DNA of 13,994 nt, from the IMG/VR virus record IMGVR_UViG_2585427783_000004; one strand, 5' to 3'. Of the stretch, positions 1-13,994 are shown piece after piece. Within the stretch, counting starts at the first letter, position 1. Every line of letters starts with the position of its first letter. The stretch comes from a virus (lineage: Duplodnaviria; Heunggongvirae; Uroviricota; Caudoviricetes). Below the pieces are notes generated by a model. The model was not told the origin of the DNA, made no database searches, and worked only from the letters and a program-made list of their open reading frames with translations. The translations under genes and the position numbers were made by a program.

Positions 1-1614
1 TTATTTATTGGTGAGTACTACGTTCCATGGCAGGAGTTCATCAACTCGGTTGGAAGGCCATTCCGGCAGTACGCTCAGGATATGGCGCAGATACGCTTCC
101 GGATCGATACCGTTCAGACGGCAGGTGCCGATCAGCCCGTACAACAGTGCTCCACGCTCGCCGCCGTGATCGCTGCCAAAGAACATAAAGTTTTTCTTTC
201 CGAGACAGACTGCACGAAGCGCTCTTTCCGCAGCATTATTATCCGCCTCCGCCAGACCGTCATCACTGTAATAACAGAGGGCATCCCACTGATTCAGTAC
301 ATAGCTGAACGCTTCGCCCAGTCTGGATTTTTTCGACAGCGTACCATTCTTCTCCACCATCCATTCATGCAGCGACGTCAGTAACACTTTGCTTCGCTGC
401 TGCCTGACGGCAAGACGCTCTGACTCCGGTAATCCCCGTATTTCATCCTCGATGGCGTACAGTTCACTGATTCGCTTCAGTGCTTCTTCTGCCGTCGCAC
501 TTTTGCTGCTGATGTATACATCGTGGATTTTTCGCCGGGCATGGGCCCAGCACGCAACTTCTGTCAGTGCACCACCTTCACGTTCTGCACTGAACAACCT
601 GTCGTAACCTGTGAACGCATCCGCCTGCAGGATACCCCGGAAGGGGCGGAGGTGTTGCTCCGGGTGTTTCCCCTGCCGGTTCGGCGAGTACGCGAACCAG
701 ACCGCTGGAGGAGATGACGAACCCACATTGCGATCATCCCGGACATACGTCCAGATACGCCCTGTTTTCGCCTTTTTCTGACCCGGTGCCAGTACCTTTA
801 CCGGTGTGTCATCAGTGTGAATCTTGCGGGTGTTCATTACATAACGGTACAGGGCATCATTCACCGGTGTCATTAACTGGCAGCACGCGTCAACCCAGTT
901 GGAGAGTAAGGCCCGGCTCAGTTCGACACCCTGGCGGGCAAAGATTTCACTCTGACGATACAGTGGCAGATGTTCGCAGTATTTTCCCGTTAACACGCGG
1001 GCAAGTAATCCGGGGCCCGCGATACCACGCTCTATCGGGCGGGACGGCGCCGGTGCTTCAACAATACAGTCACATTTTGTACAGGCTTTTTTTACCCGTT
1101 CTGTGCGGATCACTTTCAGGGCACTGCTCACCAGTTCCAGCTGTTCAGCGCTGACTTCCCCCAGATAATCCAGCTTACCGCCACACTCCGGGCAACAGCT
1201 TTCTTCTGGCTCCAGGCGGTGTATTTCACGGGGAAGGTGTGCCGGTAACGGACGACGATGGCGCGACTGTCGCAACTGGCGGGGAACCTGAGGATCGTCT
1301 TCCCGCCCACTGTAACGATCGCTGTCCTGTTCACGTTGTTTCAGCAGAGCCTCAGCCAGTTCAACTTCACGACGCAGTTTTTCAGAACGGGTACCGAACA
1401 GCATCCGGCGCAGTTTTTCTATCTGAGCCCGCAGATGTTCTATTTCCCGTTCATCTTCTTCGATCTTTTCTTCGGCACGTGTCAGTGCAGAGCGCAGGAA
1501 GGCTTCCGTCTCTTCAACCAGACTCAGTTGCTGGTCTTTCTGACGGAGGGCTTCAGCCTGCTCAGAGAGCAACCTTTCCAGCTCTGCGATGCGAATGAGG
1601 TATTTCTGACTCAT
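1..1614 (-). CDS. IS66-family transposase (TnpC / Orf3), 537 aa
   Basis: ATG at 1614, TAA at 3..1. Translation shows an N-terminal coiled-coil/leucine-zipper region, a CxxC...CxxC zinc-binding motif (CCPECGGK...CTKCDC) and a C-terminal DDE-type region, as in IS66 TnpC proteins (recognised from family signatures, not a search). Confidence 0.9.
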   Translation of the reverse strand: MSQKYLIRIAELERLLSEQAEALRQKDQQLSLVEETEAFLRSALTRAEEKIEEDEREIEHLRAQIEKLRRMLFGTRSEKLRREVELAEALLKQREQDSDRYSGREDDPQVPRQLRQSRHRRPLPAHLPREIHRLEPEESCCPECGGKLDYLGEVSAEQLELVSSALKVIRTERVKKACTKCDCIVEAPAPSRPIERGIAGPGLLARVLTGKYCEHLPLYRQSEIFARQGVELSRALLSNWVDACCQLMTPVNDALYRYVMNTRKIHTDDTPVKVLAPGQKKAKTGRIWTYVRDDRNVGSSSPPAVWFAYSPNRQGKHPEQHLRPFRGILQADAFTGYDRLFSAEREGGALTEVACWAHARRKIHDVYISSKSATAEEALKRISELYAIEDEIRGLPESERLAVRQQRSKVLLTSLHEWMVEKNGTLSKKSRLGEAFSYVLNQWDALCYYSDDGLAEADNNAAERALRAVCLGKKNFMFFGSDHGGERGALLYGLIGTCRLNGIDPEAYLRHILSVLPEWPSNRVDELLPWNVVLTNK

Positions 1615-1644
1615 GACCGTTTTTATAATGCGGTCAGGAGTTTT

Positions 1645-1995
1645 TTACAACATTGTCAGTGAGTTACGGCTGGATGTTTTTGGCTGACGCCAGTCCAGCT
1701 TATCGAGGAGCATTGCCAGTTGCGAGCGGGTAATGGATACCTTGCCGTCACGTACCGCAGGCCAGATAAACTGGCCTTCCTCCAGGCGTTTGGTGAACAG
1801 GCACAGACCATCAGCATCAGCCCAAAGAATTTTGACGGTGTCACCCCGTCGGCCACGGAAGATAAACAGGTGACCGGAGAAGGGATTATCATTCAGCACA
1901 TGTTGTACCTGTTCTCCCAGTCCGTTGAAGGATTTACGCATATCGGTAACGCCGGCAACGAGCCAGATACGGGTACCTGATGGGAGTGAGATCAT
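1645..1995 (-). CDS. IS66 Orf2 (TnpB-like accessory protein), 116 aa
   Basis: ATG at 1995 overlaps the tnpA stop (ATGA), TAA at 1645-1647. The MISLPSGTRIWLVAGVTDMRKSFNGL... N-terminus is characteristic of IS66 Orf2. Confidence 0.85.
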   Translation of the reverse strand: MISLPSGTRIWLVAGVTDMRKSFNGLGEQVQHVLNDNPFSGHLFIFRGRRGDTVKILWADADGLCLFTKRLEEGQFIWPAVRDGKVSITRSQLAMLLDKLDWRQPKTSSRNSLTML

Positions 1996-2417
1996 CTTCC
2001 CCTCCCGGTCAGTTCACGGATCAACACTGTGAGCAGCTCTGGCGATGGATTTTCCAGCGTCATGTTACCGTGACGGAATTCCACCTTGCAGGAACTGGCA
2101 CTGACTCTGGTCTGAGTGGAAGTGGATAAAGACGGCGCAATGGCCGCCACAGGTTCTTTCTGCTCATCCGGCGTTATTTCTACAGGTAATAATTCAACGC
2201 CAGTGTCAGAAGAGGTCGTTACCGGAAGACGCCGCGAAACACGCCCTTCGTTCTGCCAGAGCCTGAGCCATTTGAAAATAACATTATCATTGACGCCATT
2301 TTCACGTGCAATCTGTGCAACACAAGCTCCAGGTTGTGATGCCAGTTCCACCATACGAAGTTTGAATTCATTCGAATAGTTTTTACGAGGTTCTTTTCGC
2401 CAGTCCTGTAATTCCAT
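1992..2417 (-). CDS. IS66 Orf1 (TnpA-like, helix-turn-helix), 141 aa
   Basis: ATG at 2417; first gene of the IS66 triad; N-terminal HTH-like segment (CVAQIARENGVNDNVIFKWLR). Confidence 0.8.
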   Translation of the reverse strand: MELQDWRKEPRKNYSNEFKLRMVELASQPGACVAQIARENGVNDNVIFKWLRLWQNEGRVSRRLPVTTSSDTGVELLPVEITPDEQKEPVAAIAPSLSTSTQTRVSASSCKVEFRHGNMTLENPSPELLTVLIRELTGRGR

Positions 2418-2502
2418 ACTTAGATGTCCGTCTATATCAGATGGGCGTCTAAGTTACCAATTCTCGTCTGATGGCTACATACGGCGGTCAGTTTACGCTT
2501 AC

Positions 2503-3348
2503 GACAGAGTTATAATTTTTGCCAAAATTGGTAATGTCAGAATTTAATCCCTTAATTAAGTCTGCTGACGGCTTACCTTTTTGCCCCAGCTCCATTAGCT
2601 TCAATCCCATCTCATCTGAGTGAATTTGTGCTCGCTGAGCCCTGTCTAGTTGAGCGTTCTGGATATTTGCCCATCCTCTCGCGTTCTCCATGTCAGCCTG
2701 ACGCATACTTTCATCCAGTCGCCCTTGCTCAAGTCGACGACCTTCCATTTGATCTTTGATATCGAAATACTTCTCATGACCGAGAGAAAACAGCGCCAGA
2801 TTACCTGCGAAATGCTGGAAGCCCTGCGGGTCATTAACCTGCATTTCAGCAATAGTTTCTGGAGGGATACCTAAACGACGCATCTCCTGCTCATTATCCA
2901 TCATGAACCTGCCAAATGCGCCCTGACCAAGCGATGAGGCTACCTGTGCTTTGAGCGCCAGATTGCCATAATCATCCCTTTGAGCATCATCGACATAACT
3001 CATCCCTTTACGGACTTCCTCAAACTCTTCTGGGAATGCTGTAATAAGATTACGCATCTGCTCCCTGTCACCGGACGCATAAGCATCTGCATAACCTTTC
3101 TGGAATGCCGCTTTACGTTCCTGCTGTTGCTGCTGCTTATAAATGTCAGCAACTCCAGCCAGACCACGAAGACCTGTCAGAGCAACGTTATTTGCACCTG
3201 AGCGAGCCAGTTCATTGTTTTCGCGGATCAGACCAAGCGTTGCGTTAATGTCGCTTGCCTTTGGCGCATTCTCATTTTGCGCACCGATGCCAGCCAGAAA
3301 ACCACCAGAATTAATACCCTGTTGCCACGTAGCCATAAATTTACCCAC
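2503..3348 (-). pseudogene. Q/E/R-rich, predicted alpha-helical protein of unknown function; 3' end interrupted by the IS66 insertion
   Basis: Open frame from 3348 (alternative ATG at 3334, MATWQQ...) runs without a stop into the IS. The last codons and stop (V-S-V-N-TGA, 2502->2488) are encoded by the IS terminal repeat itself, so the native C-terminus is missing from the window. Poly-Q tract (QQQQQ) and coiled-coil-like composition. Confidence 0.55.
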
Positions 3349-5251: not shown

Positions 5252-7603
5252 TTAAAAAACATCATAACCCCCCATACCGATCAGACGGGCAAACGCAGCC
5301 TGTAGAACTCCGACCTCTGGTAGTTCGTAGAACACGCCATTCCCTCGGTCTGGTCTTCCATGCTTCACCAGCCCCATTTGTGCAAGTGATTTACCCAGTA
5401 GTGATCTGGCAGCTGGTTCTTTAAGCTTTTCCCCACGCTCAAGCGACCACGCTACAAATCGACTAACCATATCCTTTGCAAACAAACGGACTTCGCCATT
5501 AAACGGAGGTTCATTGATTAGCTCGCCATAAAGAAACAATTCAACGCCAGACAGCCCCAGCAAGATTTCTTCACGTAAGGCATCGGTCTGTGGCGCTCGT
5601 TGAGGGTCAAAACCTGAGAGATCCACCCCTTTAAGATGCCAAAGCAACTTTGCGGCACCGCCATCATTAAGCCAACTGTACAGCCGATCAAAATACTCCC
5701 GGCTCTGTGCTTTTTCAGGAGATGGCTCAAGCACGAGATAGCGGCGCTCTCTTATCCCTGCCTGTAATACCTGTGTGCTGTTACTGGCAAATATCAACCG
5801 GGCAAAATTCGGCATTGGTTCAGCATCAATTCCCTTGCGCTCAAGGTTAAACGTCGGTTCGCTAATAATCGCTTTAAGTCTGTCAGCTTCAGACGGCTTG
5901 TGGATCGTCACTTCGTCAGCAAATACCAGTAGCTTGTTAGCAAGTATTGAATTGAAGCGCCCTGAAATATGTCCCGCCCCGTTAATGTGGGCGGCGTACT
6001 GCCCCAGTATTTGCAGCAGCGGTTTAACCGTTGTGCCTTTCCCTGTGCCCGGGACAGATTTCATCACGATTGCCACGGACGGTTTTTCATCAGGCTTTTG
6101 GATAATGTGCGCCATCCACTGGATAAGATATTGGTATGCCTCTTCATTACCGGCACAGACAACCTGCAACAGGTGATTAAGGTATACCGTGCAATCTCCT
6201 TCAATTGGTTCCAGTGCCAGCCCCTCATACAGATTAAAAACATCGTCAGGGCATTTGTCTGGTACTGGATAAAATCCTACGCCTCCTGGCTTGTAGTTCT
6301 TCCCACTCCATGACAGCCACGCCGATCCCGCCAGCTTTCTGGCGACTCTCGGTTTATGATGAAAATAATGCTGAAATTGTGATAAATCCTCGAAAACGTG
6401 CGATACACCGCCGGTTTGAGAAGGCTTTAGCGACACCCCCTTGTGTTTCCCGCCGATGGTGACATGCGTAAACGTCCGGTTGATTTCTTCGAGGACAGCA
6501 ATTTCATCATCGCTTAACACCTCGCCAGAACTGATCTCATTCAGCGCCCCGACTGACTGTTTGTGATTTTTCACCTGCGCCCCTTTCCCCCGTGGCTGGT
6601 ACATCGAATCTTTAAATGCTGCTGTGGCTGCCGCCAGCCCGTGTTGTTGGTGATAGTCGTTCCAGTCGGCTTTATAGTCAGTCGGTGGCAGAGACACCCA
6701 GCCAGCTACGGAAATAGCGGCCCTCTCTGCGGCATCTTTCCCCGTGTTGATCCCTCCACTTTCGGAGTTTCCTTGCTGGTGATCGTTATCTGCGGCAATG
6801 ATGATTTGTGCCTGTGGATATGTTCTGCGCATGACTTCCGCTACTGGCAACAGGTTGCCAGCGTCGATTGCTGCCACTGTCATTGCGTCAGGGCGAATTA
6901 AATGGCACGACAGGGCGGTAGCCACCCCCTCAGCAATTATGATGCTGTGAGGTCGTTTCTGTGCGTTTATGGCGTGATATGCCCCTCGCTTTGCTGAACC
7001 TGTCAGGAGTCTTTTTTCACCATGTGAGGTAATAGTCTGTGCTGCTGTGACTGCGCCGGATTTATCCACCAGCGCCAGCAACAGAGATCCATCGGGCAAC
7101 ACAGGGAATGTAAAATCACCTACCCCTTTCGCAACCAGATAATCAGATTTGCCGTTTACAGCCTTTCTGCGCATGTCATCAAACTGACGGGAAAACGTAT
7201 CCCGTCTTTGTTGTTCGTCCTTCTCTGCCCTTTTCAGGCGCTCCTGTTCGCGTCGCTGGCGCTCGGTTTCCAGTTGTTCCCGTTTCTGGCTGGTGGCTTC
7301 TGGTGTTTCCGTTGTCCGGTAATCAATACCCAGAACATCAGCGGCAAGAAGCGCCGCCTCTGTTGTGTCGCAGTTATTTACGCGTTTAATTAAATCCAGC
7401 CCATCACCAGCGCCGCACTGATTACAGATGAAGCTACCGCGCCCGTTGTCATCGAACCGGAATCGATCTTTGCCCCCACATGCAGGGCAGGGAGCATGAC
7501 GGCGCGGAGAGTCAGGGACATTTATGTTCAGGCAGTCCAGCACATGAGGCCAGTTGTTTTCAGACGCACTGATAACCTGACGGATAAGATCAATGTTTCG
7601 CAT
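5252..7603 (-). CDS. P4 alpha-like bifunctional primase/helicase (zinc-binding primase N-terminus, TOPRIM-like middle, P-loop NTPase C-terminus), 783 aa
   Basis: ATG at 7603. Zinc-ribbon motif CPACGGKDRFRFDD...CNQCG near the N-terminus, Walker A-like VPGTGKGTT, overall size close to P4 alpha (about 777 aa). Recognised from family signatures. Confidence 0.9.
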   Translation of the reverse strand: MRNIDLIRQVISASENNWPHVLDCLNINVPDSPRRHAPCPACGGKDRFRFDDNGRGSFICNQCGAGDGLDLIKRVNNCDTTEAALLAADVLGIDYRTTETPEATSQKREQLETERQRREQERLKRAEKDEQQRRDTFSRQFDDMRRKAVNGKSDYLVAKGVGDFTFPVLPDGSLLLALVDKSGAVTAAQTITSHGEKRLLTGSAKRGAYHAINAQKRPHSIIIAEGVATALSCHLIRPDAMTVAAIDAGNLLPVAEVMRRTYPQAQIIIAADNDHQQGNSESGGINTGKDAAERAAISVAGWVSLPPTDYKADWNDYHQQHGLAAATAAFKDSMYQPRGKGAQVKNHKQSVGALNEISSGEVLSDDEIAVLEEINRTFTHVTIGGKHKGVSLKPSQTGGVSHVFEDLSQFQHYFHHKPRVARKLAGSAWLSWSGKNYKPGGVGFYPVPDKCPDDVFNLYEGLALEPIEGDCTVYLNHLLQVVCAGNEEAYQYLIQWMAHIIQKPDEKPSVAIVMKSVPGTGKGTTVKPLLQILGQYAAHINGAGHISGRFNSILANKLLVFADEVTIHKPSEADRLKAIISEPTFNLERKGIDAEPMPNFARLIFASNSTQVLQAGIRERRYLVLEPSPEKAQSREYFDRLYSWLNDGGAAKLLWHLKGVDLSGFDPQRAPQTDALREEILLGLSGVELFLYGELINEPPFNGEVRLFAKDMVSRFVAWSLERGEKLKEPAARSLLGKSLAQMGLVKHGRPDRGNGVFYELPEVGVLQAAFARLIGMGGYDVF

Positions 7604-7615
7604 TCTGGCCCCCGT

Positions 7616-8218
7616 TTAGTGCGTCACTGGTGCTTCTGGGATGCCGTTTTCGTTTAGTTCGGCAATAAAGCTGTTGTGAAGATCGGCAAGCACTTCTCGC
7701 CCAAACGAAGTGAGTGTTCCCTGTTCGACATCGAACATGTTGCTGTAAAAAATGATGGCATTCTTTGTTCCGACATCAACACCATATTTCTCGATCATTG
7801 CGCCCTCAATGTTGTTTGCCATAGCGAGGCGCTCTGCTACTGGATACAGCGGCATGGCGACGATGCCATTGGAATAAACAGAAACCACGGAATGATTGCC
7901 ACTGTCATCAATAATGCTGACGGTGCCGTTTTCCTCTCTCATTTCCAGCATGAATACTGTTGCGATCAGCCATCTCCACATAATGACGTTATGCTGTGAT
8001 GTGTAATCGAAATATCCCTGGTTGCCGCCATCGGCAATAGCGAGATGTATTGACATACCTTCATCTGGTTTATCGTCATAATCCCCGGCATCCAGACGAT
8101 TTACGGCATCAATATATGAGACGGCCTCAACGCGTTCTGTCATGCCATCGTTGCTGCGGTACATGATGTTTACGCCGCCAGGCGTTGCTTCTGCATGGAA
8201 AGTTAAGAAATTATTCAT
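7616..8218 (-). CDS. Hypothetical protein, 200 aa, immediately upstream of and co-oriented with the primase
   Basis: ATG at 8218 (MNNFLTFHAE...) with GAGG 7 nt upstream; 8-bp overlap with the preceding small gene. The ORF-track start at 8323 is an upstream extension that would overlap the previous gene by more than 100 bp. Confidence 0.6.
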   Translation of the reverse strand: MNNFLTFHAEATPGGVNIMYRSNDGMTERVEAVSYIDAVNRLDAGDYDDKPDEGMSIHLAIADGGNQGYFDYTSQHNVIMWRWLIATVFMLEMREENGTVSIIDDSGNHSVVSVYSNGIVAMPLYPVAERLAMANNIEGAMIEKYGVDVGTKNAIIFYSNMFDVEQGTLTSFGREVLADLHNSFIAELNENGIPEAPVTH

Positions 8219-8432
8219 GTTTCGCCTCGCCTGAATGATTCTGTAACTCATATTTGCCCAACAATTCGTCCGCTTCCTGAATAGCTTCTGGTACGCCATT
8301 GAGCAGTGACATAACCGCGCCAATCATTAACTTGTCTCTGTTGCTTGGGCTGGCCCCTTCAAGCCAGAACCCTAAAACAGTCTGAACCTGTTCGATGCGA
8401 CATTGCGCTTCAATGAGCTGGATGTTGGTCAT
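8211..8432 (-). CDS. Hypothetical small protein, 73 aa
   Basis: ATG at 8432 with GGAGAG 6 nt upstream; ATGA overlap with the preceding gene stop (8429-8432). Confidence 0.55.
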   Translation of the reverse strand: MTNIQLIEAQCRIEQVQTVLGFWLEGASPSNRDKLMIGAVMSLLNGVPEAIQEADELLGKYELQNHSGEAKHE

Positions 8433-8692
8433 TTCGCACTCTCCACATCGATTAAACTGATATCTATCAGGGAGGTAACTTTTTGTAGCCAGCTATTGAT
8501 TACTGTCGCCTGTTCCCCTCCCACCGAGGGAATAATCTCATTCATCACATGAACCAGACCTGTGCGCGCTCTGGTAAGCCGTTCAGTCGCGCAATCTGCG
8601 GGAGTGAATGTGTCTGGATATGGCTCTTCGCGCCCCAGCAATGATTCAATTTCCAGCTCACACGGATGACGATAAATTAAGTTGATATTCAT
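8429..8692 (-). CDS. Hypothetical small protein, 87 aa
   Basis: ATG at 8692; ATGA overlap with the upstream gene stop; part of the chain of overlapping genes. Confidence 0.55.
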   Translation of the reverse strand: MNINLIYRHPCELEIESLLGREEPYPDTFTPADCATERLTRARTGLVHVMNEIIPSVGGEQATVINSWLQKVTSLIDISLIDVESAK

Positions 8693-8883
8693 TTTTCACC
8701 ACCAAGAATTACCAGCTCTGCACGGGCATCGTTAACCAAAGATGAGCACGCTTTAATCGCATCCACGACATCAGCAGCGTCCATTTCTTCAGCCGAAAGA
8801 CTGACAGCAACCAGGACAGCCGCTGCTTGCTCGATTAATTGAAGTGCGGACGTAAGGCGAGGGGTATTAATTGAGTTATTCAT
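8689..8883 (-). CDS. Hypothetical small protein, 64 aa
   Basis: ATG at 8883 preceded by GGGGG about 6 nt upstream; 8-bp overlap with the upstream gene. Confidence 0.5.
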   Translation of the reverse strand: MNNSINTPRLTSALQLIEQAAAVLVAVSLSAEEMDAADVVDAIKACSSLVNDARAELVILGGEK

Positions 8884-9094
8884 TGGTTGCCCCCGTTTTT
8901 ACTGGCATTTCGCCACCTTCCAGCAGGAAATGAACGTCACGAACGGCGAGATCCAATATCGCGAGTAACGCCTTCAGTCTTTCGTCTCGTGAGGGAGAGT
9001 TGCTCACCAGAATGTCGTTAATCACTTCTGTCAGTGTGATGATCTGGCTTGTGCGTTCGAGGGGATCCATATGCACATCGTAGGTTTTAATCAT
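8876..9094 (-). CDS. Hypothetical small protein, 72 aa
   Basis: ATG at 9094 preceded by GGAGGTG at ideal spacing; the start overlaps the stop of the upstream 64-aa gene (CATGATTAA). Confidence 0.55.
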   Translation of the reverse strand: MIKTYDVHMDPLERTSQIITLTEVINDILVSNSPSRDERLKALLAILDLAVRDVHFLLEGGEMPVKTGATNE

Positions 9095-9281
9095 GTGCCA
9101 CCTCCATGCGGATACGACCAGCAAAAAAGCAGACGTGATCGCGCACCAGAGAACGGCGAGCATCGCGTTCAGACTCGGCAGCAATATGATGAATTTTGGC
9201 GGTAATTGTCGGGCAATCGCGGCGAACTGCGGCGATAATCCAGATAAATTGCGTTTTTTGGGTAGGGGTAGTAGCCAGCAT
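9087..9281 (-). CDS. Hypothetical small protein, 64 aa; first gene of the early operon that ends with the primase
   Basis: ATG at 9281 preceded by a perfect AAGGAGG 7 nt upstream. All seven Arg codons are CGC/CGT and Leu is CTG, whereas the overlapping frame of the 355-aa ORF is full of CTA/TTA/ATA/AGG/CGA here. Confidence 0.55.
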   Translation of the reverse strand: MLATTPTQKTQFIWIIAAVRRDCPTITAKIHHIAAESERDARRSLVRDHVCFFAGRIRMEVAHD

Positions 9282-9477
9282 GTGGCAGCCTCCTTCAGAT
9301 AGCAGGTTACGCTACCACCGGAAACGCCAATTTCGCTGGTGGTAGCCCAGACAGGGTTGGCGTAACCGGCTCTGAAGGATACCGGCGCTTCCGAAGAAGC
9401 CCCCGCCTGAGCCACCATTGATTGACAAAGGCGCTGGATTATACACCAACGCCCAAAAAATGGGTGAGTCAGACCTA
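9282..9477 (-). promoter_or_regulatory. Promoter plus structured 5' leader of the early operon
   Basis: Minus-strand TATAAT at 9443->9438 (no good -35). Downstream leader has a UUCG-tetraloop hairpin (GCUUC-UUCG-GAAGC, 9400->9387) and a 9-bp stem hairpin (GCUACCACC ... GGUGGUAGC, 9346->9311) before the SD at about 9290. Confidence 0.35.
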
Positions 9478-9513
9478 CGACATAAAAAAAGACGCTTGGC
9501 GCGTCATATGTCG
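9478..9513 (-). terminator. Candidate rho-independent terminator at the end of the alpA-side transcription unit
   Basis: Minus strand: stem GACGC / GCGUC (5 bp, 5-nt loop) followed by U7 (9490->9484), nested inside a larger inverted repeat CGACAT ... ATGTCG (9478-9483 / 9508-9513). Confidence 0.4.
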
Positions 9514-9943
9514 CCTTCAGAATTTTTAGGACGCCAATCCCGGCACCCGTTTTATGAGGTGCCTTATAACCATAAACCGTGTTGCCGCATAACGGCAAGC
9601 TCTTTTTTATGGACTCCGAAAACTCACTATTGGAAGAACCAGAAGCACAGTACATCGCGCTCATTTCGTTAACGTCACGCGCGTGGACGAAGGTTTTTGT
9701 GGAGTCACTACACGAGCAGAGAAAGCCATCTACGACCAGAAATTCTCTGGCATAGCCGCTGACCTTCTCAACGCTAACACCATCGACCGTAATTTCTGAC
9801 ATAGTTAAGGCATCCGCTCCTACCACCAGCAAATGATAAACTTTGCTTGTATCTGCTGTATTAATGTCTGACTTTGCTGTCATATTGCTGGATTTTGGCG
9901 ACATACCAGCCAGTGAAAATATCTTCTTCTGGGCGGTTAGCAT
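9514..9943 (-). other. Open frame with a plausible start (GGAGG + ATG at 9943) but no in-frame stop before the terminator and promoter; possible decayed gene or chance open frame
   Basis: SD GGAGG 7 nt upstream of the ATG at 9943 and protein-like composition for about 120 codons, but the frame runs through a terminator, a promoter, leader hairpins and a better-supported gene in another frame without any stop. Confidence 0.25.
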
Positions 9944-10119
9944 TTGTTAACCTCCGCGAACTCCTTCATGAAACGTGCCAGCGGTTGTACGCATGGCGAT
10001 TGATACCCGTCGCGATAAAACGTCACTCGGTTGTGAGACACGCTTTCGACAGTAACGAGTGCTCCGTGGGCATCTTTGTAGCGTTTTTGAGGTTGTGGTG
10101 TTCCTGTCGGCTTAAACAT
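9937..10119 (-). CDS. Hypothetical small protein, 60 aa
   Basis: ATG at 10119 (MFKPTGT...) preceded by GGAGG 6 nt upstream; the start overlaps the stop of the antirepressor-like gene (ATGTTTAA). The ORF-track start at 10206 is a non-coupled upstream extension. Confidence 0.45.
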   Translation of the reverse strand: MFKPTGTPQPQKRYKDAHGALVTVESVSHNRVTFYRDGYQSPCVQPLARFMKEFAEVNKC

Positions 10120-10945
10120 GGACCGCCTCCAGACGCTTGGCGAGCCAGCGTTGCGACAGGCGGGGGAGTTCTCCTTTGCGCTGCTCATATTCCATGCCCA
10201 TATCAATTAACGTGATATTGGTGCTTTCGAGATATGAGAGGTGCTCAAGCTGTTCTGCGTTCATATGGTCGCGAGGTTCGCCAGAATAGCCATTTATCCG
10301 CGCCCACTGCTTAGCAGTTAGCCCACCAAGAACGATACGAGAAATCATATTGCTCTCGTTTGTGTAGTGGTGTTGCTGCGTCGTTTTCCCCATCTCGGCA
10401 CGGGCCATATTCAGCGCATCGCACATTGGCTTGAAGTTGTTTGCGGCACTGATACGGGCTTTTAGCTGGCGACGATAGCGGGCGGCGATTTCAGGCACGC
10501 TACGCTGTAATTCTTTCTCGCACTGGATGAAATAACGGCGGATAGCGCGACCCTGATCATTGCGTTCGATCATTGCCAGTTCTTTCGCCATTCCGACACT
10601 TAACAGATAGTCTTTGCCGGGTCTGCCAGACTGCTTAATCTTGCTGTAAGCCGCGTCATTCGGGCTTTTCCCCAAATTTGGGGAAATTGTTTTATGGACT
10701 GAGTAATCGTGCCCAATGGTGAAGTCATATTCAGAGATGCGATCAGTGATCCATGTAGAGAAGTCTTTTCCCACGCCCAACGCTTTGTGTAACGCTTTTG
10801 CGCTAACAATATTGGTTTCACGCCCGCCTATATGACCAGAAATAACCGGGACAATTGCGGCAAATTCATTACCGTTAATTGTGCCCAGAGAGGCGTTCAG
10901 ATGAGGGGCGGCCTCAGAAATTAATCTGCTTTTTTCGATGTTCAT
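10112..10945 (-). CDS. Phage antirepressor-like protein with N-terminal AntA/AntB-type domain, 277 aa
   Basis: ATG at 10945 with GGAGA 6 nt upstream. The N-terminal region (SAKALHKALGVGKDFSTWI...GRPGKDYLLSVGMAKELAMIE...GRAIRRYFIQCE) matches the conserved AntA-domain pattern as I recall it. Confidence 0.65.
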   Translation of the reverse strand: MNIEKSRLISEAAPHLNASLGTINGNEFAAIVPVISGHIGGRETNIVSAKALHKALGVGKDFSTWITDRISEYDFTIGHDYSVHKTISPNLGKSPNDAAYSKIKQSGRPGKDYLLSVGMAKELAMIERNDQGRAIRRYFIQCEKELQRSVPEIAARYRRQLKARISAANNFKPMCDALNMARAEMGKTTQQHHYTNESNMISRIVLGGLTAKQWARINGYSGEPRDHMNAEQLEHLSYLESTNITLIDMGMEYEQRKGELPRLSQRWLAKRLEAVHV

Positions 10946-10957
10946 TTTTAGTCTCCG

Positions 10958-11389
10958 TTAGGCGGCGTTAAACGCGTCCGGGTAGAGTTTCAGAATGTCG
11001 GCAATTTCCTGCTGAGAAAGTCCGTTGTGATCATTTATGTTCGCAAGATGGTTAACATGAGTGATCACTTTCAGAACATCACCACGGCAGGAGAAACGGT
11101 AGCGAAGGTGTGTTCCGATACCATCAGGATTCTTTTCGTCGATACGCTCCAGAGTGATTCCAAGCTGGCGTTCTAACTCTGTTGCATAGTTACGACCAGA
11201 AGACAGACGGCAGTAGCGAAGAATGTCATTTTCTGTCCATCCCTCTATACCAGTACGCAGCATATAGACTCGGGCACGATGCTTTTTCGGTGTGCGCTTT
11301 GGTGCTTGAAGGGATTTTGTAAGGGGCGTAATATCAGATACGCGAATATCTGAATTAGCCGCCTGTAATGGGCGGTTTTTCTTTTCCAT
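10958..11389 (-). CDS. Hypothetical protein, 143 aa, basic N-terminus; function unknown
   Basis: ATG at 11389 overlaps the alpA stop (ATGA); no stop for 143 codons; conventional codon usage. Confidence 0.6.
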   Translation of the reverse strand: MEKKNRPLQAANSDIRVSDITPLTKSLQAPKRTPKKHRARVYMLRTGIEGWTENDILRYCRLSSGRNYATELERQLGITLERIDEKNPDGIGTHLRYRFSCRGDVLKVITHVNHLANINDHNGLSQQEIADILKLYPDAFNAA

Positions 11390-11607
11390 CAGGCCACCTT
11401 CCCGCGGCGTTCTGCCAGCCAGTTATTAATTTCCACCGCATCAAACGCAGTCACGTTATCTGTTAGCTTCACTGGGCGTGGAAGAGTGCCATTTTTAACC
11501 CATCTATCAATAGTAGGCAGTGAAACACCTAGCAATTCCGGCATGCGAAAGCGACGGATGTATCCAGTTGTTGGGATAGCTGATGATGCTGGCTTGTGTA
11601 CTGTCAT
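11389..11607 (-). CDS. alpA: AlpA-family (excisionase-like, MerR-type HTH) transcriptional regulator, 72 aa
   Basis: ATG at 11607. Small protein with the motif MPELLGVSLPTIDRWVKNGTLPRPVKL...AFDAVEINNWL typical of AlpA/Xis-type regulators found next to P4-type integrases. Confidence 0.75.
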   Translation of the reverse strand: MTVHKPASSAIPTTGYIRRFRMPELLGVSLPTIDRWVKNGTLPRPVKLTDNVTAFDAVEINNWLAERRGKVA

Positions 11608-12078
11608 GTCTCTAGTAACCTCTCTGATAGCTCATGAAGTTACTTAAAGTTTAGTGGTTGCCCATACAGTATTTCTATTAAGACTAGAATCTATTGAAAG
11701 AAATTATAAATCTATTGAAAAAATACCGATCCACTGAAAGATTGCAAATGCAGGTGGGATAATTATTTTCTTTATTTTCAATTAGTTACCAGTTTAAAAA
11801 ATCATTGTTTTATCAAAGAGTTATATCTTTCATCGTCATTCATCATGTTTTTACATTTCTTTTTATCTTTTATTATTCAATTGGTTGAGTCGGTTTATAA
11901 TGGCTCATGATGGCTTAAAATGGCTAATGATAGCTGGCGTATCTTTTAGAGATGGGGTGATTACAGATGAACTAAGCCGAACAGATATAGCAATGGCTAG
12001 GCATAGAATTATCTATGCTGGTGGAGATGGGTAAACAGGTAATGCCCCGCCATTGCTTTGGAGGGGCGTGAAAAGTGA
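11608..12078 (-). promoter_or_regulatory. AT-rich intergenic control region upstream of alpA, carrying repeat motifs
   Basis: 470 bp with no ORF of 60 aa or more, strongly AT-rich with A/T tracts. Contains direct repeats AATCTATTGAAA (11688-11699 and 11709-11720), a 7-bp-arm palindrome GCATAGA-atta-TCTATGC (12001-12018) and the phased array at 11901-11938. Confidence 0.4.
11901..11938. repeat. Helically phased tandem 10-bp repeats TGGCTnAnnA (3 good copies plus 1 degenerate)
   Basis: tggctcatga / tggcttaaaa / tggctaatga / tagctggcgt read directly from the sequence; 10-bp periodicity places copies on one DNA face. Confidence 0.45.
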
Positions 12079-12729
12079 TTAGTCGAGATCGTGGACAGCT
12101 AATAAAGCCCGTGAGATTTTTTCTAGGAATGTGGCTTTTGCTATTCCTTTATGGGATATCCCTTCATCCTTGATTAAGGTTTCTATGTCACGGTATATAG
12201 CTGTGCGATTAGGTTTCCCATTTTGGATGTAGGAAGATGAGCCTGATTTTTTTATCAGCAGATGTACTATCAACCCCATCATTTTCATTGTCCCGTTTTC
12301 CTCATCCTGCTTTCTATGCTGCCCACGTCCGCTGCGGTTGGTTTCTTTGATGTAGTTTACTAACTGGAGTCCTCCAAGGTTTCGGGCTTTTTCTTCCCAG
12401 CCCTTGGTGCCACGCAAATCATCAATCGCTTCTGATATTTTCTGAACAATTATTTCTGGTGTATTTGTGTCAATAAATGGGTAAGAAGCTAAGAAAATAT
12501 CAAGGGCATGGCAAGGCTCATCTTTACTAGTTTTTTCACCTCTGTACACCTTGATAGCTCTGGCAAGATGAGTTCTGACAAAATCGACATATTCGAAATT
12601 TTCCTCAGGCACATCGCTAATGCGCATAGATGGGTTTAGGCCAGCCAAGGCCACAGCCATTTCATGAGGGGTAATCGATACAGATGAACAAAGCCGTTCG
12701 ATTGGCGATTTTCTCAAGATGTTGTTCAC
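12079..12729 (-). CDS. Hypothetical protein, 216 aa, translationally coupled to the integrase; AT-rich cargo gene of unknown function
   Basis: GTG start at 12729 overlapping the integrase stop (GTGA) with a strong GGAGG 5 nt upstream; TAA at 12079-12081. Visibly lower GC than neighbouring genes. No family recognised. Confidence 0.6.
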   Translation of the reverse strand: MNNILRKSPIERLCSSVSITPHEMAVALAGLNPSMRISDVPEENFEYVDFVRTHLARAIKVYRGEKTSKDEPCHALDIFLASYPFIDTNTPEIIVQKISEAIDDLRGTKGWEEKARNLGGLQLVNYIKETNRSGRGQHRKQDEENGTMKMMGLIVHLLIKKSGSSSYIQNGKPNRTAIYRDIETLIKDEGISHKGIAKATFLEKISRALLAVHDLD

Positions 12730-13994
12730 ATTTGCCTCCGGGCTTTATCGAATGGCGTTACGTTGTAGTCTTTCCCGCTTTCCAGTGCCACCAGCAGATC
12801 TGCCCACTGTGCCAGTGCTGCTTTACGCTCATCAAAATACTGATGACGGTTATAAATCCCCTCTACGCCCTTAATGCGATGATTGAGGCATCGTTCCGCC
12901 ACGACAGGATCAACACCCAATGCTGCTAAATGAGTACGTGCGGTGCGTCGGAAGTCGTGAATCGTGAAATTAGGCACATCCGGCATTTCGGCGCGAACCT
13001 TAGCCAGTGCTACGGGTAAAGTGCTTTCCTGAATATGTGGGATCATTCTGTTTTGCATCTTCCTGGCCGGAAGCACCCATGCGCTATTACATGAAAAGGT
13101 GTGTAGCTCTCTCAACCATTCAACGGCTGGGGAAGGTAGAGGTATATCAATAGGGTCTCCGTTTTTGCTGCGTTCTTCCGGCAAATGCCATACCGCACCA
13201 TCTAAATCAAACTCTTCCCATCGTGCGGCGCATAACTCCATCTTACGAACGCATAGTGCCAGCAATAGCTTAAATGTCAGTTCGTTCTGGCGGCTGAATC
13301 CTTTTGCGGTGCGCATAGCCTCGAATAGCCTGATAAGCTCATCGCGAGTTAGCCAACGGTCGCGGGAAACCTCTTTACCACCAGCATCAGATACTTCAAA
13401 CGCTGAACAAGGGTTTATCTCCAGAGCGTGGCGTTTTATCCCATAGTCAAAGATACGGCGTGTCCAGCGTAATACATCTGTTGCTATCGTTGGTGCTCCT
13501 CGGTCAACGATACCTTTTAACATGTCGTCAATGTGACGTGGCTTAACGTCCTCTACCTTCATATGCCCAATGCAGGGGTTAATATCCTTATCAATTCTCC
13601 GGCGAAGGATATCGGGATGTTTCCATCTCGGAAGTATCTGTCGCTCGAAGTATTCGGCGGCCAGATCTGAAACGCGCATGGCGTTTTTCTCAGCCTCCAT
13701 TTTTGCCAGTGCTTCAGCTTTTCGTTCCTGTTTTTCTGCTGCTACGTCATAGCCAAGAGCAACTCTGGCTGACAGCTCTTTTGCTGTTTCTCTGGCTTTT
13801 GATAGTGACAGTTCGGAGTAAGAGCCGATAACCATAGCCCGCTGTTTTCCTGCGAGCTTATATCGGAATCGCCAGAACGGGACTGTGTAGTTTTTGGGGT
13901 AGCAAATATAAAGGCCGTTGCCGTCTGCCTTGCCATCAAATCTGTCTCCCGCCTTTATCCATGCGCGGATCTGCATATCTGTGAGTTTTGGCAT
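12726..13994 (-). CDS. int: Tyrosine recombinase, P4-type phage integrase, 422 aa
   Basis: ATG at 13994 (window edge). N-terminal arm-binding region with RFRYKLAGKQRAMVIGSY...LSKARETAKEL, and C-terminal catalytic region with HDFRRTARTHLAALGV and a conserved Tyr (YNRHQY). Confidence 0.9.
   Translation of the reverse strand: MPKLTDMQIRAWIKAGDRFDGKADGNGLYICYPKNYTVPFWRFRYKLAGKQRAMVIGSYSELSLSKARETAKELSARVALGYDVAAEKQERKAEALAKMEAEKNAMRVSDLAAEYFERQILPRWKHPDILRRRIDKDINPCIGHMKVEDVKPRHIDDMLKGIVDRGAPTIATDVLRWTRRIFDYGIKRHALEINPCSAFEVSDAGGKEVSRDRWLTRDELIRLFEAMRTAKGFSRQNELTFKLLLALCVRKMELCAARWEEFDLDGAVWHLPEERSKNGDPIDIPLPSPAVEWLRELHTFSCNSAWVLPARKMQNRMIPHIQESTLPVALAKVRAEMPDVPNFTIHDFRRTARTHLAALGVDPVVAERCLNHRIKGVEGIYNRHQYFDERKAALAQWADLLVALESGKDYNVTPFDKARRQM

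Follow-up and report, generated by a model that had tools for sequence, protein, structure and literature searches.

Genes and features of the antA locus

The whole stretch of DNA analysed (13,994 nucleotides; hereafter the window) carries an island whose genes are all co-oriented on the minus strand, among them the gene chain alpA-orf143-antA-DUF4222-ash (Table 1). The preliminary description had placed an AntA-domain gene at 10112-10945, and an open reading frame with exactly these ends is found on the minus strand. Its product is labelled 'antA/AntB antirepressor family protein' in RefSeq. The dN/dS of antA is 0.10–0.17 (against orthologues with 59–73% identity), so antA is not a chance ORF; it is under purifying selection, and a decaying or hitch-hiking ORF is ruled out by this ratio together with the synteny described below. 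Two weak Rfam matches, Plastid-petD inside antA (10511-10586) and CRISPR-DR10 (12032-12074), are far under their gathering scores and were rejected.

Table 1. Position of antA, its parts and the other features of the island in the window
Feature	Position	Strand	Description and evidence
Integrase gene	12726..13994	-	P4-type tyrosine integrase, integration zone; Pfam Arm-DNA-bind_3, Phage_int_M, Phage_integrase
alpA	11389..11607	-	AlpA/Vis-type HTH, first gene of the operon; Pfam Phage_AlpA, E 6e-6; stop overlaps orf143 start by 1 nt (11389)
orf143	10958..11389	-	RefSeq 'PM1773 family protein', directly 5' of antA
Ribosome-binding site of antA	10953..10956	-	GGAG, 7 nt 5' of the ATG; sequence reading
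antA	10112..10945	-	CDS, 277 aa; ORF and translation; ATG at 10945, TAA stop 10112-10114
N-terminal module of AntA	10496..10870	-	aa 26-150: beta-hairpin, winged helix-turn-helix, helix alpha4, helix with conserved RxYFIxCE motif
C-terminal helical domain of AntA	10115..10495	-	aa 151-277; in no Pfam family, common to Rha-type regulators; pLDDT 90-98
DUF4222 gene	9937..10119	-	small gene, 60 aa; Pfam DUF4222, E 1.8e-24; RefSeq gene boundaries
ash	8876..9943	-	'ash family' ORF (P4 eta-like), immunity RNAs inside; Pfam Phage_ASH at aa 124-232 (nt 9248-9574)
isrK RNA	9485..9562	-	P4 seqA-like; Rfam RF01394, 60.5 bits (gathering score 50)
C4/CI-type RNA	9335..9422	-	antisense immunity RNA; Rfam RF01695, 79.9 bits (gathering score 45)
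Primase/helicase gene	5252..7603	-	P4-alpha-like (Zn ribbon, Toprim, DUF5906), replication zone; Pfam

The start codon of the DUF4222 gene overlaps the antA stop by 8 nt (10112-10119, ATGTTTAA), and DUF4222 and ash overlap at 9937-9943. The terminator scan gave no minus-strand terminator before 9662, and the first intrinsic one 3' of antA on this strand is of the isrK/seqA type (9491-9505). The overlaps and close spacing of the genes and this terminator agree with the earlier placing of antA in the alpA-side operon, upstream of the terminator that ends it. In related loci orf143 is found upstream of AntA in 21 of 44, with identity levels near those of AntA across species. The loop of the C4 RNA can pair with isrK (9514-9521) and with the ribosome-binding site of an Icd-like ORF (9291-9299). 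Within antA there is a single complementary stretch, 10 nt long (10157-10166), which matches an apparent stem segment of C4 and is probably due to chance. In phage P1, ant also shares an operon with a C4 RNA, but there it lies 3' of c4/icd and under C4 control, while antA lies 5' of the C4 RNA here. Considering this position and the pairing partners of the C4 loop, antA was rejected as the C4-controlled 'ant' of a P1-type immI operon.

The set of genes and RNAs (int, alpA, primase, Phage_ASH, C4/isrK and a captured late gene) is that of a Gram-negative PICI of the EcCIMP1 type. The late zone holds a P22 gp16-like ejection-protein gene and an IS66 insertion, and Pfam annotation revealed no capsid or terminase gene in the window. 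Moreover, a 3.8-kb block (7618-11399) has 94.8% nucleotide identity to EcCIMP1, a PICI of E. coli that has been validated experimentally and uses the P22-like phage Kapi1 for its mobilisation; helper-dependent excision, replication and transfer were demonstrated for it (Pick et al. 2025, PMC11773190). The satellite context assumed for antA in the preliminary description is thus borne out. The 'antirepressor' of EcCIMP1 (E. coli MP1, WP_001019374.1) is 97% identical in amino acid sequence across all 277 residues, and the neighbouring orf143 (99%), DUF4222, ash, small ORFs and orf235 are alike in the two islands. The two islands differ in the int and alpA modules (AlpA is only 34% identical), the N-terminal part of the primase, the late zone and the integration site, which is yicC-dinD here and tRNA-Thr in EcCIMP1.

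Distribution of antA in bacterial genomes

At least 80% of the stretch 9900-11700 is carried by 507 of 5426 complete E. coli genomes. The search for related loci, with an alignment of 8 closer sequences as the query, gave full-length AntA relatives at 50 species-representative loci (34–97% identity), with a co-oriented integrase upstream in 36 of 39 and a primase downstream in 40 of 44, and no primase was present at the 30 loci matching the AntA N-domain only. A C4 RNA lies downstream in 6 of 10 diverse AntA loci. An alignment of 31 representatives shows 29–54% identity. The alignment through the C-domain motifs and the place between alpA and ash/primase assign the protein to a satellite-type two-domain AntA subfamily. 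AntA is syntenic in four bacterial orders with the int and alpA modules swapped, and just 49 of the 50,697 phage records contain its C-domain. That the full two-domain form is found almost only in satellites, across the four orders, is new here, and EcCIMP1-type islands sampled from these orders share antA beside alpA.

The occurrence of antA in a satellite is itself already known: Gram-negative PICIs have been reported to carry 'Bro network' genes of the AntA type in the interval from alpA to the primase, and antA, which is widespread and has been annotated, belongs to the core genes of an E. coli satellite family described before. Gram-negative PICIs possess a 'Bro zone' with AntA/Phage_ASH proteins and C4/isrK RNAs (PMC10111431), and the genes listed for Enterobacter cloacae PICIs and cf-PICIs include AntA/AntB (PMC13612085). 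As in the window, the 'Bro zone' of Gram-negative PICIs and HE-PICIs has the integration zone (int, AlpA) on one side and the replication zone on the other, and it includes Phage_ASH and C4/isrK. However, in these two papers the zone figures as a set of domains that shuffle, and neither the two-domain form nor its fold or C-domain is singled out. Thus, antA is not unusual in a satellite, as the preliminary description had it, but a standard published part of Gram-negative PICIs (PMC10111431, PMC13612085, PMC11773190); with annotations in hundreds of genomes and the presence in PICIs published, the finding in its first form adds little.

Domain composition of the AntA protein

Pfam AntA (PF08346) matches aa 47-129 (nt 10559-10807) over the whole profile (1-68) with an E value of 1.2e-21 and 77.5 bits against a gathering cut-off of 27 bits, and the AntA domain read from the sequence at first is therefore confirmed by HMM search. 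Many prophage proteins combine this N-module with other C-domains. In the Pfam search neither ANT/KilAC nor P22_AR_N, P22_AR_C or any other domain of characterised antirepressors was found in the protein, and BLASTP with Ant1 of P1, a proven antirepressor with an ANT/KilAC domain only and without an AntA domain, gave no similarity (best E 0.23). Domain search and BLASTP thus reveal no homology to an experimentally proven antirepressor, and what the antA product has in common with P1 Ant1/Ant2 and P22 Ant is the annotation word. An NCBIfam search gave no family for AntA, orf143, orf216, DUF4222, Ash or orf235. The label 'antirepressor' was given because the Pfam family bears that name, and the antirepressor reading of antA comes from this family name alone. 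This correction matters, as 'antirepressor' is an inherited family name, not a function, and gives no basis for inferring helper induction.

The sole AntA domain with tested activity is that of AriS from Listeria phage phi10403S, which has an AntA/AntB domain at its N-terminus as in the antA product. For its own phage, this domain means less lytic transcription, less replication and fewer virions, not derepression (PMC9043618). AriS differs in its C-terminus, an ANT/KilAC domain acting as an SOS inhibitor, which is absent from the antA product, and in being phage-borne and Gram-positive.

Annotation of the C-terminal half (about aa 150-277), which had been suggested in the preliminary description, gave no Pfam family in any of the 27 member proteins searched but did reveal homology to Rha-type regulators of P22-like phages. 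The C-domain matches the C-terminus of the Rha-family protein of Salmonella phage SI5 (BLASTP E 7e-20, 34% identity over 130 aa), and it carries the conserved motifs GK, HYxNE, RD and RK. The Rha-family regulators of Salmonella phages SI5 and 64795_sal4 have this homologous C-domain and a similar overall size, and gp79 of ES18 has the C-domain in common with the antA product. In contrast, the N-terminal module of the Rha-family regulators is Phage_pRha, not AntA, and the rha-type gene of SI5 and 64795_sal4 follows the lysis genes (and precedes terS in SI5), in the late operon and not in an early one. This homology is new here, and the Rha proteins with the C-domain belong to P22-like phages, the kind by which EcCIMP1 is mobilised. 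In addition, the PADLOC candidate PDC-S22 matches the C-domain only (aa 164-266 against positions 155-259 of the 281-position profile, E 7.7e-11).

The AntA protein has a net charge of +8 and a pI of 9.4. The long helices (aa 130-184) account for +6, while the winged-helix part (aa 26-86) is not basic (net charge -1). Conserved basic residues in the alignments are R136, R164, K187, R225, R256 and K257.

Predicted fold and similarity to DdrC

The AlphaFold2 model built from the 31 diverse representatives has a pLDDT of 85, and a model from a shallow alignment of close homologues (58) was set aside. The sole strong structural neighbour of the predicted fold is DdrC of Deinococcus radiodurans (PDB 7qvb, 7udi, 8u0g), a DNA-binding dimer with a winged helix and a helical bundle; both domains align, and the predicted model shows the same combination of winged helix and helical bundle. 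The TM-scores are 0.35–0.43, low because the domain orientations differ, and the sequence identity is 13–17%. Searching the PDB with the single sequence, the full-length profile and the C-domain profile gave no meaningful match, and no DdrC at E values up to 10. The similarity of the predicted AntA fold to DdrC is structural only, and a DdrC-like fold predicted for an antA product is new here. DdrC is encoded by a chromosomal DNA-damage-response gene described as Deinococcus-specific, and activity on DNA breaks is known for DdrC, not for AntA proteins: it binds nicks and breaks and compacts and circularises DNA (PMC11347143, PMC9303277). The motif of DdrC equivalent to the AntA winged helix is thought not to touch DNA, and for the similar motif of DdrC and SKI-DHD a role in binding other proteins is discussed (PMC9303277). 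The predicted fold, the C-domain shared with Rha proteins and the nearly exclusive satellite context could guide experiments on this conserved gene adjoining alpA.

Possible function of the AntA protein

We assume, with a probability of about 0.5, that the antA product is a two-domain DNA-binding regulator of the 'Bro network', encoded by a 'Bro zone' core gene of an EcCIMP1-type PICI and acting at the satellite-helper interface after activation by the helper. In the predicted fold, the N-terminal AntA module consists of a beta-hairpin and a winged helix, and dimerisation is probably the task of the C-terminal helical bundle, which would also offer basic surfaces for contact with DNA. The gene would be co-transcribed and translationally chained with alpA through the series alpA-orf143-antA-DUF4222-ash, and because of this chaining to the alpA operon the protein would be made only after the lytic programme of the helper has switched on the alpA promoter. 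The AntA dimer would then most likely bind island and/or helper DNA and adjust transcription or replication; probably it does not sequester a repressor. Models for such an action are the AntA domain of AriS and CapR of the Vibrio PLE, a 'Bro network' relative cited in PMC10111431 as repressing a helper capsid gene.

The AntA family, the charge, the Rha C-domain homology, the operon anatomy, the synteny, the selection and the literature speak for the regulator. On the other side, the winged helix is not basic, its DdrC equivalent is thought to stay off DNA, and a protein-protein role of the N-domain is possible. The helper-dependent expression of antA is extrapolated from EcCIMP1, where the alpA promoter is turned on only after helper induction (PMC11773190) and whose alpA/promoter module differs from that in the window.

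Based on the structural model, one might speculate that the satellite AntA proteins and the Rha proteins sharing their C-domain are the missing relatives of DdrC, which is described as genus-specific and without structural homologues. DdrC could then derive from a 'Bro network' gene of a phage or satellite, or the PICI gene could encode a DdrC-like, domain-swapped dimer binding DNA ends or nicks instead of an operator-binding regulator or antirepressor. In that case the PICI protein might capture helper DNA, or it might shield satellite DNA, close it into a circle or compact it. We regard this kinship as possible though unlikely; if it is a true homology, it would also show from where a DNA-repair factor regarded as unique to Deinococcus has evolved.

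The protein could also be a structure-specific DNA binder like DdrC, which as a domain-swapped dimer at ends or nicks would hold, protect, compact or circularise satellite DNA, either the linear concatemers packaged by headful after injection or the replicating DNA before packaging. P22-type headful packaging yields linear, terminally redundant DNA that needs circularisation. In favour are the P22-type ejection-protein genes of the island, the mobilisation of its relative EcCIMP1 by a P22-like phage, the basic character of the long helices, the conserved Arg/Lys residues of the C-domain and the alignment of both domains with a protein of known action on nicks and breaks. However, a biochemical activity is not transferable from fold similarity and there is no link to DdrC at sequence level, the combination of the N-module with other C-domains in many prophage proteins fits gene regulation better, and expression from an operon that needs the helper for activation would not suit a role immediately after injection into a cell lacking the helper. 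Such a binder therefore appears doubtful.

A true antirepressor, as the preliminary description proposed, would bind a CI-type repressor of the helper or a repressor of the island through protein-protein contact and inactivate it, with the result that the helper is induced or derepressed faster, like with P4 epsilon. P4 epsilon, the satellite antirepressor of the P2 C repressor, provides a satellite-encoded precedent; this small protein is the product of a gene lying 5' of the primase in the same kind of early (left) operon. The likeness is a functional analogy only, that of a satellite gene possibly acting on the helper: no homology was found, and epsilon lies 3' of the CI RNA whereas antA lies 5' of it. 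The family name and the PHROGs families 'anti-repressor Ant', which match the antA product with E values of 5e-39 and 4e-27, point the same way, and a winged helix that is not basic, like the DdrC/SKI-DHD motif, would suit contact with a protein (PMC9303277). Furthermore, Ant of Stx phage 24B, which speeds derepression on induction, adjoins int at the end of the phage genome, as do AntA-domain tblastn matches in other Stx phages. However, the reported likeness of 24B Ant to P22 Ant is in its C-terminal domain (PMC3064807), which is absent from the antA product, homology to Ant1, P22_AR_N/C and ANT is lacking, and the AntA domain of AriS lowers transcription. Deletion of EcCIMP1 left the titre of Kapi1 after induction and the Kapi1 CI-lux signal unchanged (PMC11773190), which speaks indirectly against the helper induction considered before. 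A helper-inducing role would also be largely redundant, because the alpA operon of EcCIMP1 turns on only after induction, and by analogy with EcCIMP1 antA would not be expressed earlier. Synteny over four orders despite the swaps of int and alpA is not expected for a protein matched to the repressor of one helper. Taken as a whole, this makes the antirepressor unlikely.

An effector of interference or immunity against incoming or competing phage DNA or transcription, which would underlie the EcCIMP1-dependent superinfection immunity of Kapi1 lysogens (raised by the island, with no known defence system found by the authors, PMC11773190) and would fit the match of the C-domain to the candidate defence family PDC-S22 and the repression ascribed to CapR in the paper citing it, is quite improbable, as that immunity is credited to the island as a whole and to no single gene, PDC-S22 is treated as a computed subtype in the only paper found mentioning it and its enrichment near defence genes may be just a consequence of residing in prophages or satellites, and the conserved syntenic place beside alpA in nearly all relatives indicates a core life-cycle gene, not variable defence cargo.

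As to the sites that the proposed DNA-binding regulator would recognise, binding at the repeats of the alpA promoter (TTTCAATAGAT, present twice) is unlikely, since the alpA module is swapped between islands with near-identical antA.

The antA gene and its product

A single minus-strand ORF fills positions 10112-10945, exactly where the preliminary description had placed an AntA-domain gene, with its ATG at 10945, a TAA stop at 10112-10114 and a GGAG motif 7 nt 5' of the start codon. The 277-residue product (AntA) matches the whole Pfam AntA profile (PF08346) with residues 47-129 (E 1.2e-21; 77.5 bits, cut-off 27), and this HMM search confirmed the domain. The PHROGs 'anti-repressor Ant' families also match (E 5e-39 and 4e-27), and RefSeq names the product 'antA/AntB antirepressor family protein'. 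The C-terminal half, whose annotation had been proposed as a check, gave no Pfam family in AntA or in 26 relatives. The C-terminal domain of AntA (10115-10495) is 34% identical (E 7e-20) to that of phage proteins of roughly 229 residues. The latter occur in the Lederbergvirus (P22-like) Salmonella phages SI5 and 64795_sal4, and differ from AntA in carrying Phage_pRha as the N-terminal module; their Rha-family genes follow the lysis genes, in SI5 before terS. Kapi1, the helper phage of the E. coli island EcCIMP1, is P22-like as well. Among 50,697 phage records, only 49 contain the AntA-type C-domain, whose fusion partners are Rha, KilA-N or AntA modules; the full AntA plus C-domain form was seen in only one phage, Edwardsiella phage EPP-1.

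Purifying selection acts on antA: dN/dS is 0.10-0.17 in comparison with orthologues at 59-73% identity, and about 0.36 for copies that are nearly identical. Of 5426 complete E. coli genomes, 507 contain at least 80% of the sequence 9900-11700.

The AlphaFold2 model, built on a diverse alignment of 31 representatives (29-54% identity), is confident (pLDDT 85.2, pTM 0.69). As a whole AntA is basic (net +8, pI 9.4); of this charge, +6 falls on the long helices, and the winged helix is neutral or slightly acidic. Conserved Arg and Lys residues in the helical part are R136, R164, K187, R225, R256 and K257. Viral proteins close to it in fold are KilA-N, Bro-N, T5orf172, 'regulatory' and 'antirepressor' proteins. 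The model also has the build of Deinococcus DdrC (beta-hairpin, winged helix, linker helices, four-helix bundle), and its charge layout resembles that reported for DdrC. DdrC forms a dimer with swapped domains, which binds DNA, detects nicks and breaks in it, and can compact and circularise it (PMC9303277, PMC11347143). Both of these structural studies report that DdrC has neither structural relatives nor homologues beyond Deinococcus. Between DdrC and AntA we found no sequence-level link, and a literature search gave no paper connecting them.

Island layout and comparison with known PICIs

All island genes are co-oriented on the minus strand, and no capsid or terminase gene is found in the window. 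[quoted passage not shown] The window agrees with this scheme in every point, and the satellite context proposed for antA holds: it is an int/alpA/primase island of a published type. AntA/AntB genes are also listed for Enterobacter PICIs and cf-PICIs (PMC13612085); antA itself is already known, as an annotated gene in a published PICI context.

Features of the island, of the AntA model and of related phage loci
Feature	Position	Strand	Remarks
Integrase gene	12726-13994	-	first in transcription order
orf216	12079-12729	-	216 aa, phrog_30524; after the integrase gene, overlapping its stop by 4 nt
alpA	11389-11607	-	after orf216
orf143 ('PM1773 family')	10958-11389	-	between alpA and antA
antA	10112-10945	-	after orf143, before the DUF4222 gene
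DUF4222 gene		-	between antA and ash
'ash family' ORF	8876-9943	-	355 aa in RefSeq; after the DUF4222 gene
isrK (P4 seqA-like) RNA	9485-9562	-	Rfam, 60.5 bits; inside ash ORF
C4/CI antisense RNA	9335-9422	-	Rfam, 79.9 bits; inside ash ORF
Three small ORFs and orf235		-	between ash ORF and primase gene
P4-alpha-like primase gene	5252-7603	-	after orf235
Late zone			P22 gp16-like ejection-protein gene interrupted by IS66 element (1-2417)
Disordered N-terminal tail	aa 1-25		AlphaFold2 model
Beta-hairpin	aa 34-48		AlphaFold2 model
Helix-turn-helix	aa 49-73		AlphaFold2 model
Two-stranded wing with disordered insert	aa 81-116		AlphaFold2 model
Helix alpha4			AlphaFold2 model; between wing and long helices
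Two long basic helices	aa 130-184		AlphaFold2 model
Compact helical bundle	aa 191-276		AlphaFold2 model
Phage Rha-family loci	L092:2722-3411, L093:2674-3360		C-domain common with AntA

EcCIMP1 of E. coli MP1 is a PICI validated by experiment, which excises only in the presence of the P22-like prophage Kapi1, depends on alpA and int for excision and transfer, and is transduced by Kapi1 (PMC11773190). Positions 7618-11399 are 94.8% identical to it, and the similarity stops exactly at the alpA/orf143 junction; the proteins share 97% (AntA) and 99% (orf143) identity with their counterparts, but AlpA only 34%. The antA counterpart is strongly conserved among EcCIMP1-like elements (PMC11773190).

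The island of E. coli 99-3165 lies between yicC and dinD and is otherwise 99.97-100% identical to the window, but lacks a 2.4-kb stretch (window 5875-8270). Since this deletion truncates the primase gene, which is intact in the window, and removes orf235, the 99-3165 copy is probably replication-defective. It has no IS66 element, and its ejection-protein gene encodes 447 residues. In the window the element consists of three ORFs (HTH, TnpB_IS66 and DDE transposase), and the adjoining P22 gp16-like gene (2488-3348, Inj_translocase) is shortened to 286 residues. The annotation of orf216 gives no function and PADLOC gave no match to it; homologues follow the integrase gene in four compared loci (L016, L019, L043, L047), and one is present in L036.

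Distribution and synteny

The large AntA family counted 7564 cluster representatives (E up to 0.001). Sampling one genome per species gave 50 loci with a full-length relative (34-97% identity), from Enterobacterales, Orbales, Aeromonas and Pasteurellaceae. A co-oriented integrase gene lies 5' of the AntA gene in 36 of the 39 loci with enough flank and a primase gene downstream in 40 of 44, while no primase was found at the 30 loci matching the N-module only. The two-domain form is therefore a syntenic core gene of the EcCIMP1-type PICI lineage, and occasional import from a temperate phage was rejected as its origin. AlpA was found in 26 of the 44 loci, an underestimate given the four queries used, and Ash in 18; four contigs looked up separately have the same context. 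Of ten diverse loci, six have a C4 RNA within 0.1-2.3 kb on the downstream side of the AntA gene and four have isrK there; tmRNA or tRNA genes abut several of these islands.

For integrase and AlpA, identity to the window copies varies without following that of AntA. In contrast, orf143, which has no Pfam, PHROG or NCBIfam match, lies directly 5' of the AntA gene in 21 of 44 loci and its identity tracks that of AntA, which suggests that the two may form a functional pair.

Operon structure and RNA immunity module

Base 11389 belongs both to the alpA stop and to the orf143 start, orf143 and antA are separated by 12 nt containing the RBS, the DUF4222 ATG overlaps the antA stop by 8 nt, and the ash ATG likewise overlaps the stop of the DUF4222 gene. 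No minus-strand terminator was predicted from alpA to 9662, the first convincing one being that of isrK (9491-9505). Because the genes are chained in this way, the placement of antA in the alpA-side operon, upstream of its terminator, was correct.

The part of the ash ORF that codes for the Pfam Phage_ASH match (9248-9574) contains the C4/CI and isrK RNAs. The loop of C4 (TCCTTCAGA) shows complementarity to isrK at 9514-9521 and also to the RBS (9291-9299) of a 64-residue ORF (9087-9281, minus strand), equal in size to the EcCIMP1 gene named 'host cell division inhibitor Icd-like' in RefSeq. The 'ash family' ORF overlaps this ORF in another frame, and its long annotation is probably over-extended. 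Judged by these complementarities, the module is predicted to be a P4/P1-type RNA immunity system acting downstream of antA. The P1 order is c4, icd, ant, whereas antA lies upstream of the C4 RNA; antA therefore does not correspond to the 'ant' that C4 controls in an operon of this kind.

In the AT-rich int-alpA spacer, about 80-110 nt 5' of the alpA ATG, TTTCAATAGAT occurs in two exact minus-strand copies (11689-11699 and 11710-11720) 21 nt apart (0.29 expected by chance), a possible operator for transcription from the alpA promoter. The Rfam 'int-alpA RNA' motif (RF02996) was not detected in this spacer, but three related islands have it at the corresponding place between the two genes (L012:5197-5262, L024:5089-5158, L032:4428-4495).

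Possible function of AntA

We consider, with a probability of about one half, that AntA is a DNA-binding regulator working as a dimer. It would be produced from the helper-activated alpA operon, would bind island and/or helper DNA, and would thereby tune transcription or replication. The analysis shows the domains, the predicted fold, the operon structure, the synteny and the selection; DNA binding, dimerisation, the timing of expression and the targets are inferred from them. Modest new points, which make the function of antA more testable, are the DdrC-like fold, the C-domain shared with Rha proteins and the satellite-specific distribution.

An antirepressor acting on the helper repressor, as the preliminary description had proposed, is unlikely. 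The EcCIMP1 authors also drew the antA counterpart as 'antirepressor' (PMC11773190), but the evidence speaks against reading this name literally. Ant1 of P1, a proven antirepressor, carries ANT/KilAC as its only domain, with no AntA domain and no significant similarity to AntA, which itself has neither an ANT/KilAC nor a P22_AR domain. Ant of Stx phage 24B resembles P22 Ant in a C-terminal domain (PMC3064807) that AntA lacks. Activity has been tested for a single AntA domain, that of Listeria AriS: once the AriS phage is induced, this domain reduces the phage's transcription, replication and yield, and the SOS inhibition by AriS resides in its KilAC domain (PMC9043618). Moreover, deletion of the whole EcCIMP1 left the Kapi1 titre after induction and Kapi1 CI-lux unchanged, and an antirepressor from the alpA operon would come late because the EcCIMP1 alpA promoter is active only once the helper is induced (PMC11773190). 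Thus, the gene, satellite and operon observations stand, but the interpretation is supported only in part, the antirepressor role being unsupported.

Equally doubtful is a role like that of DdrC, in which AntA would bind the ends or nicks of DNA and protect, circularise or compact it. Least probable is an effector of interference or superinfection immunity. The PADLOC candidate family PDC-S22, for which a literature search found no experimental test, matches the AntA C-domain (E 7.7e-11).
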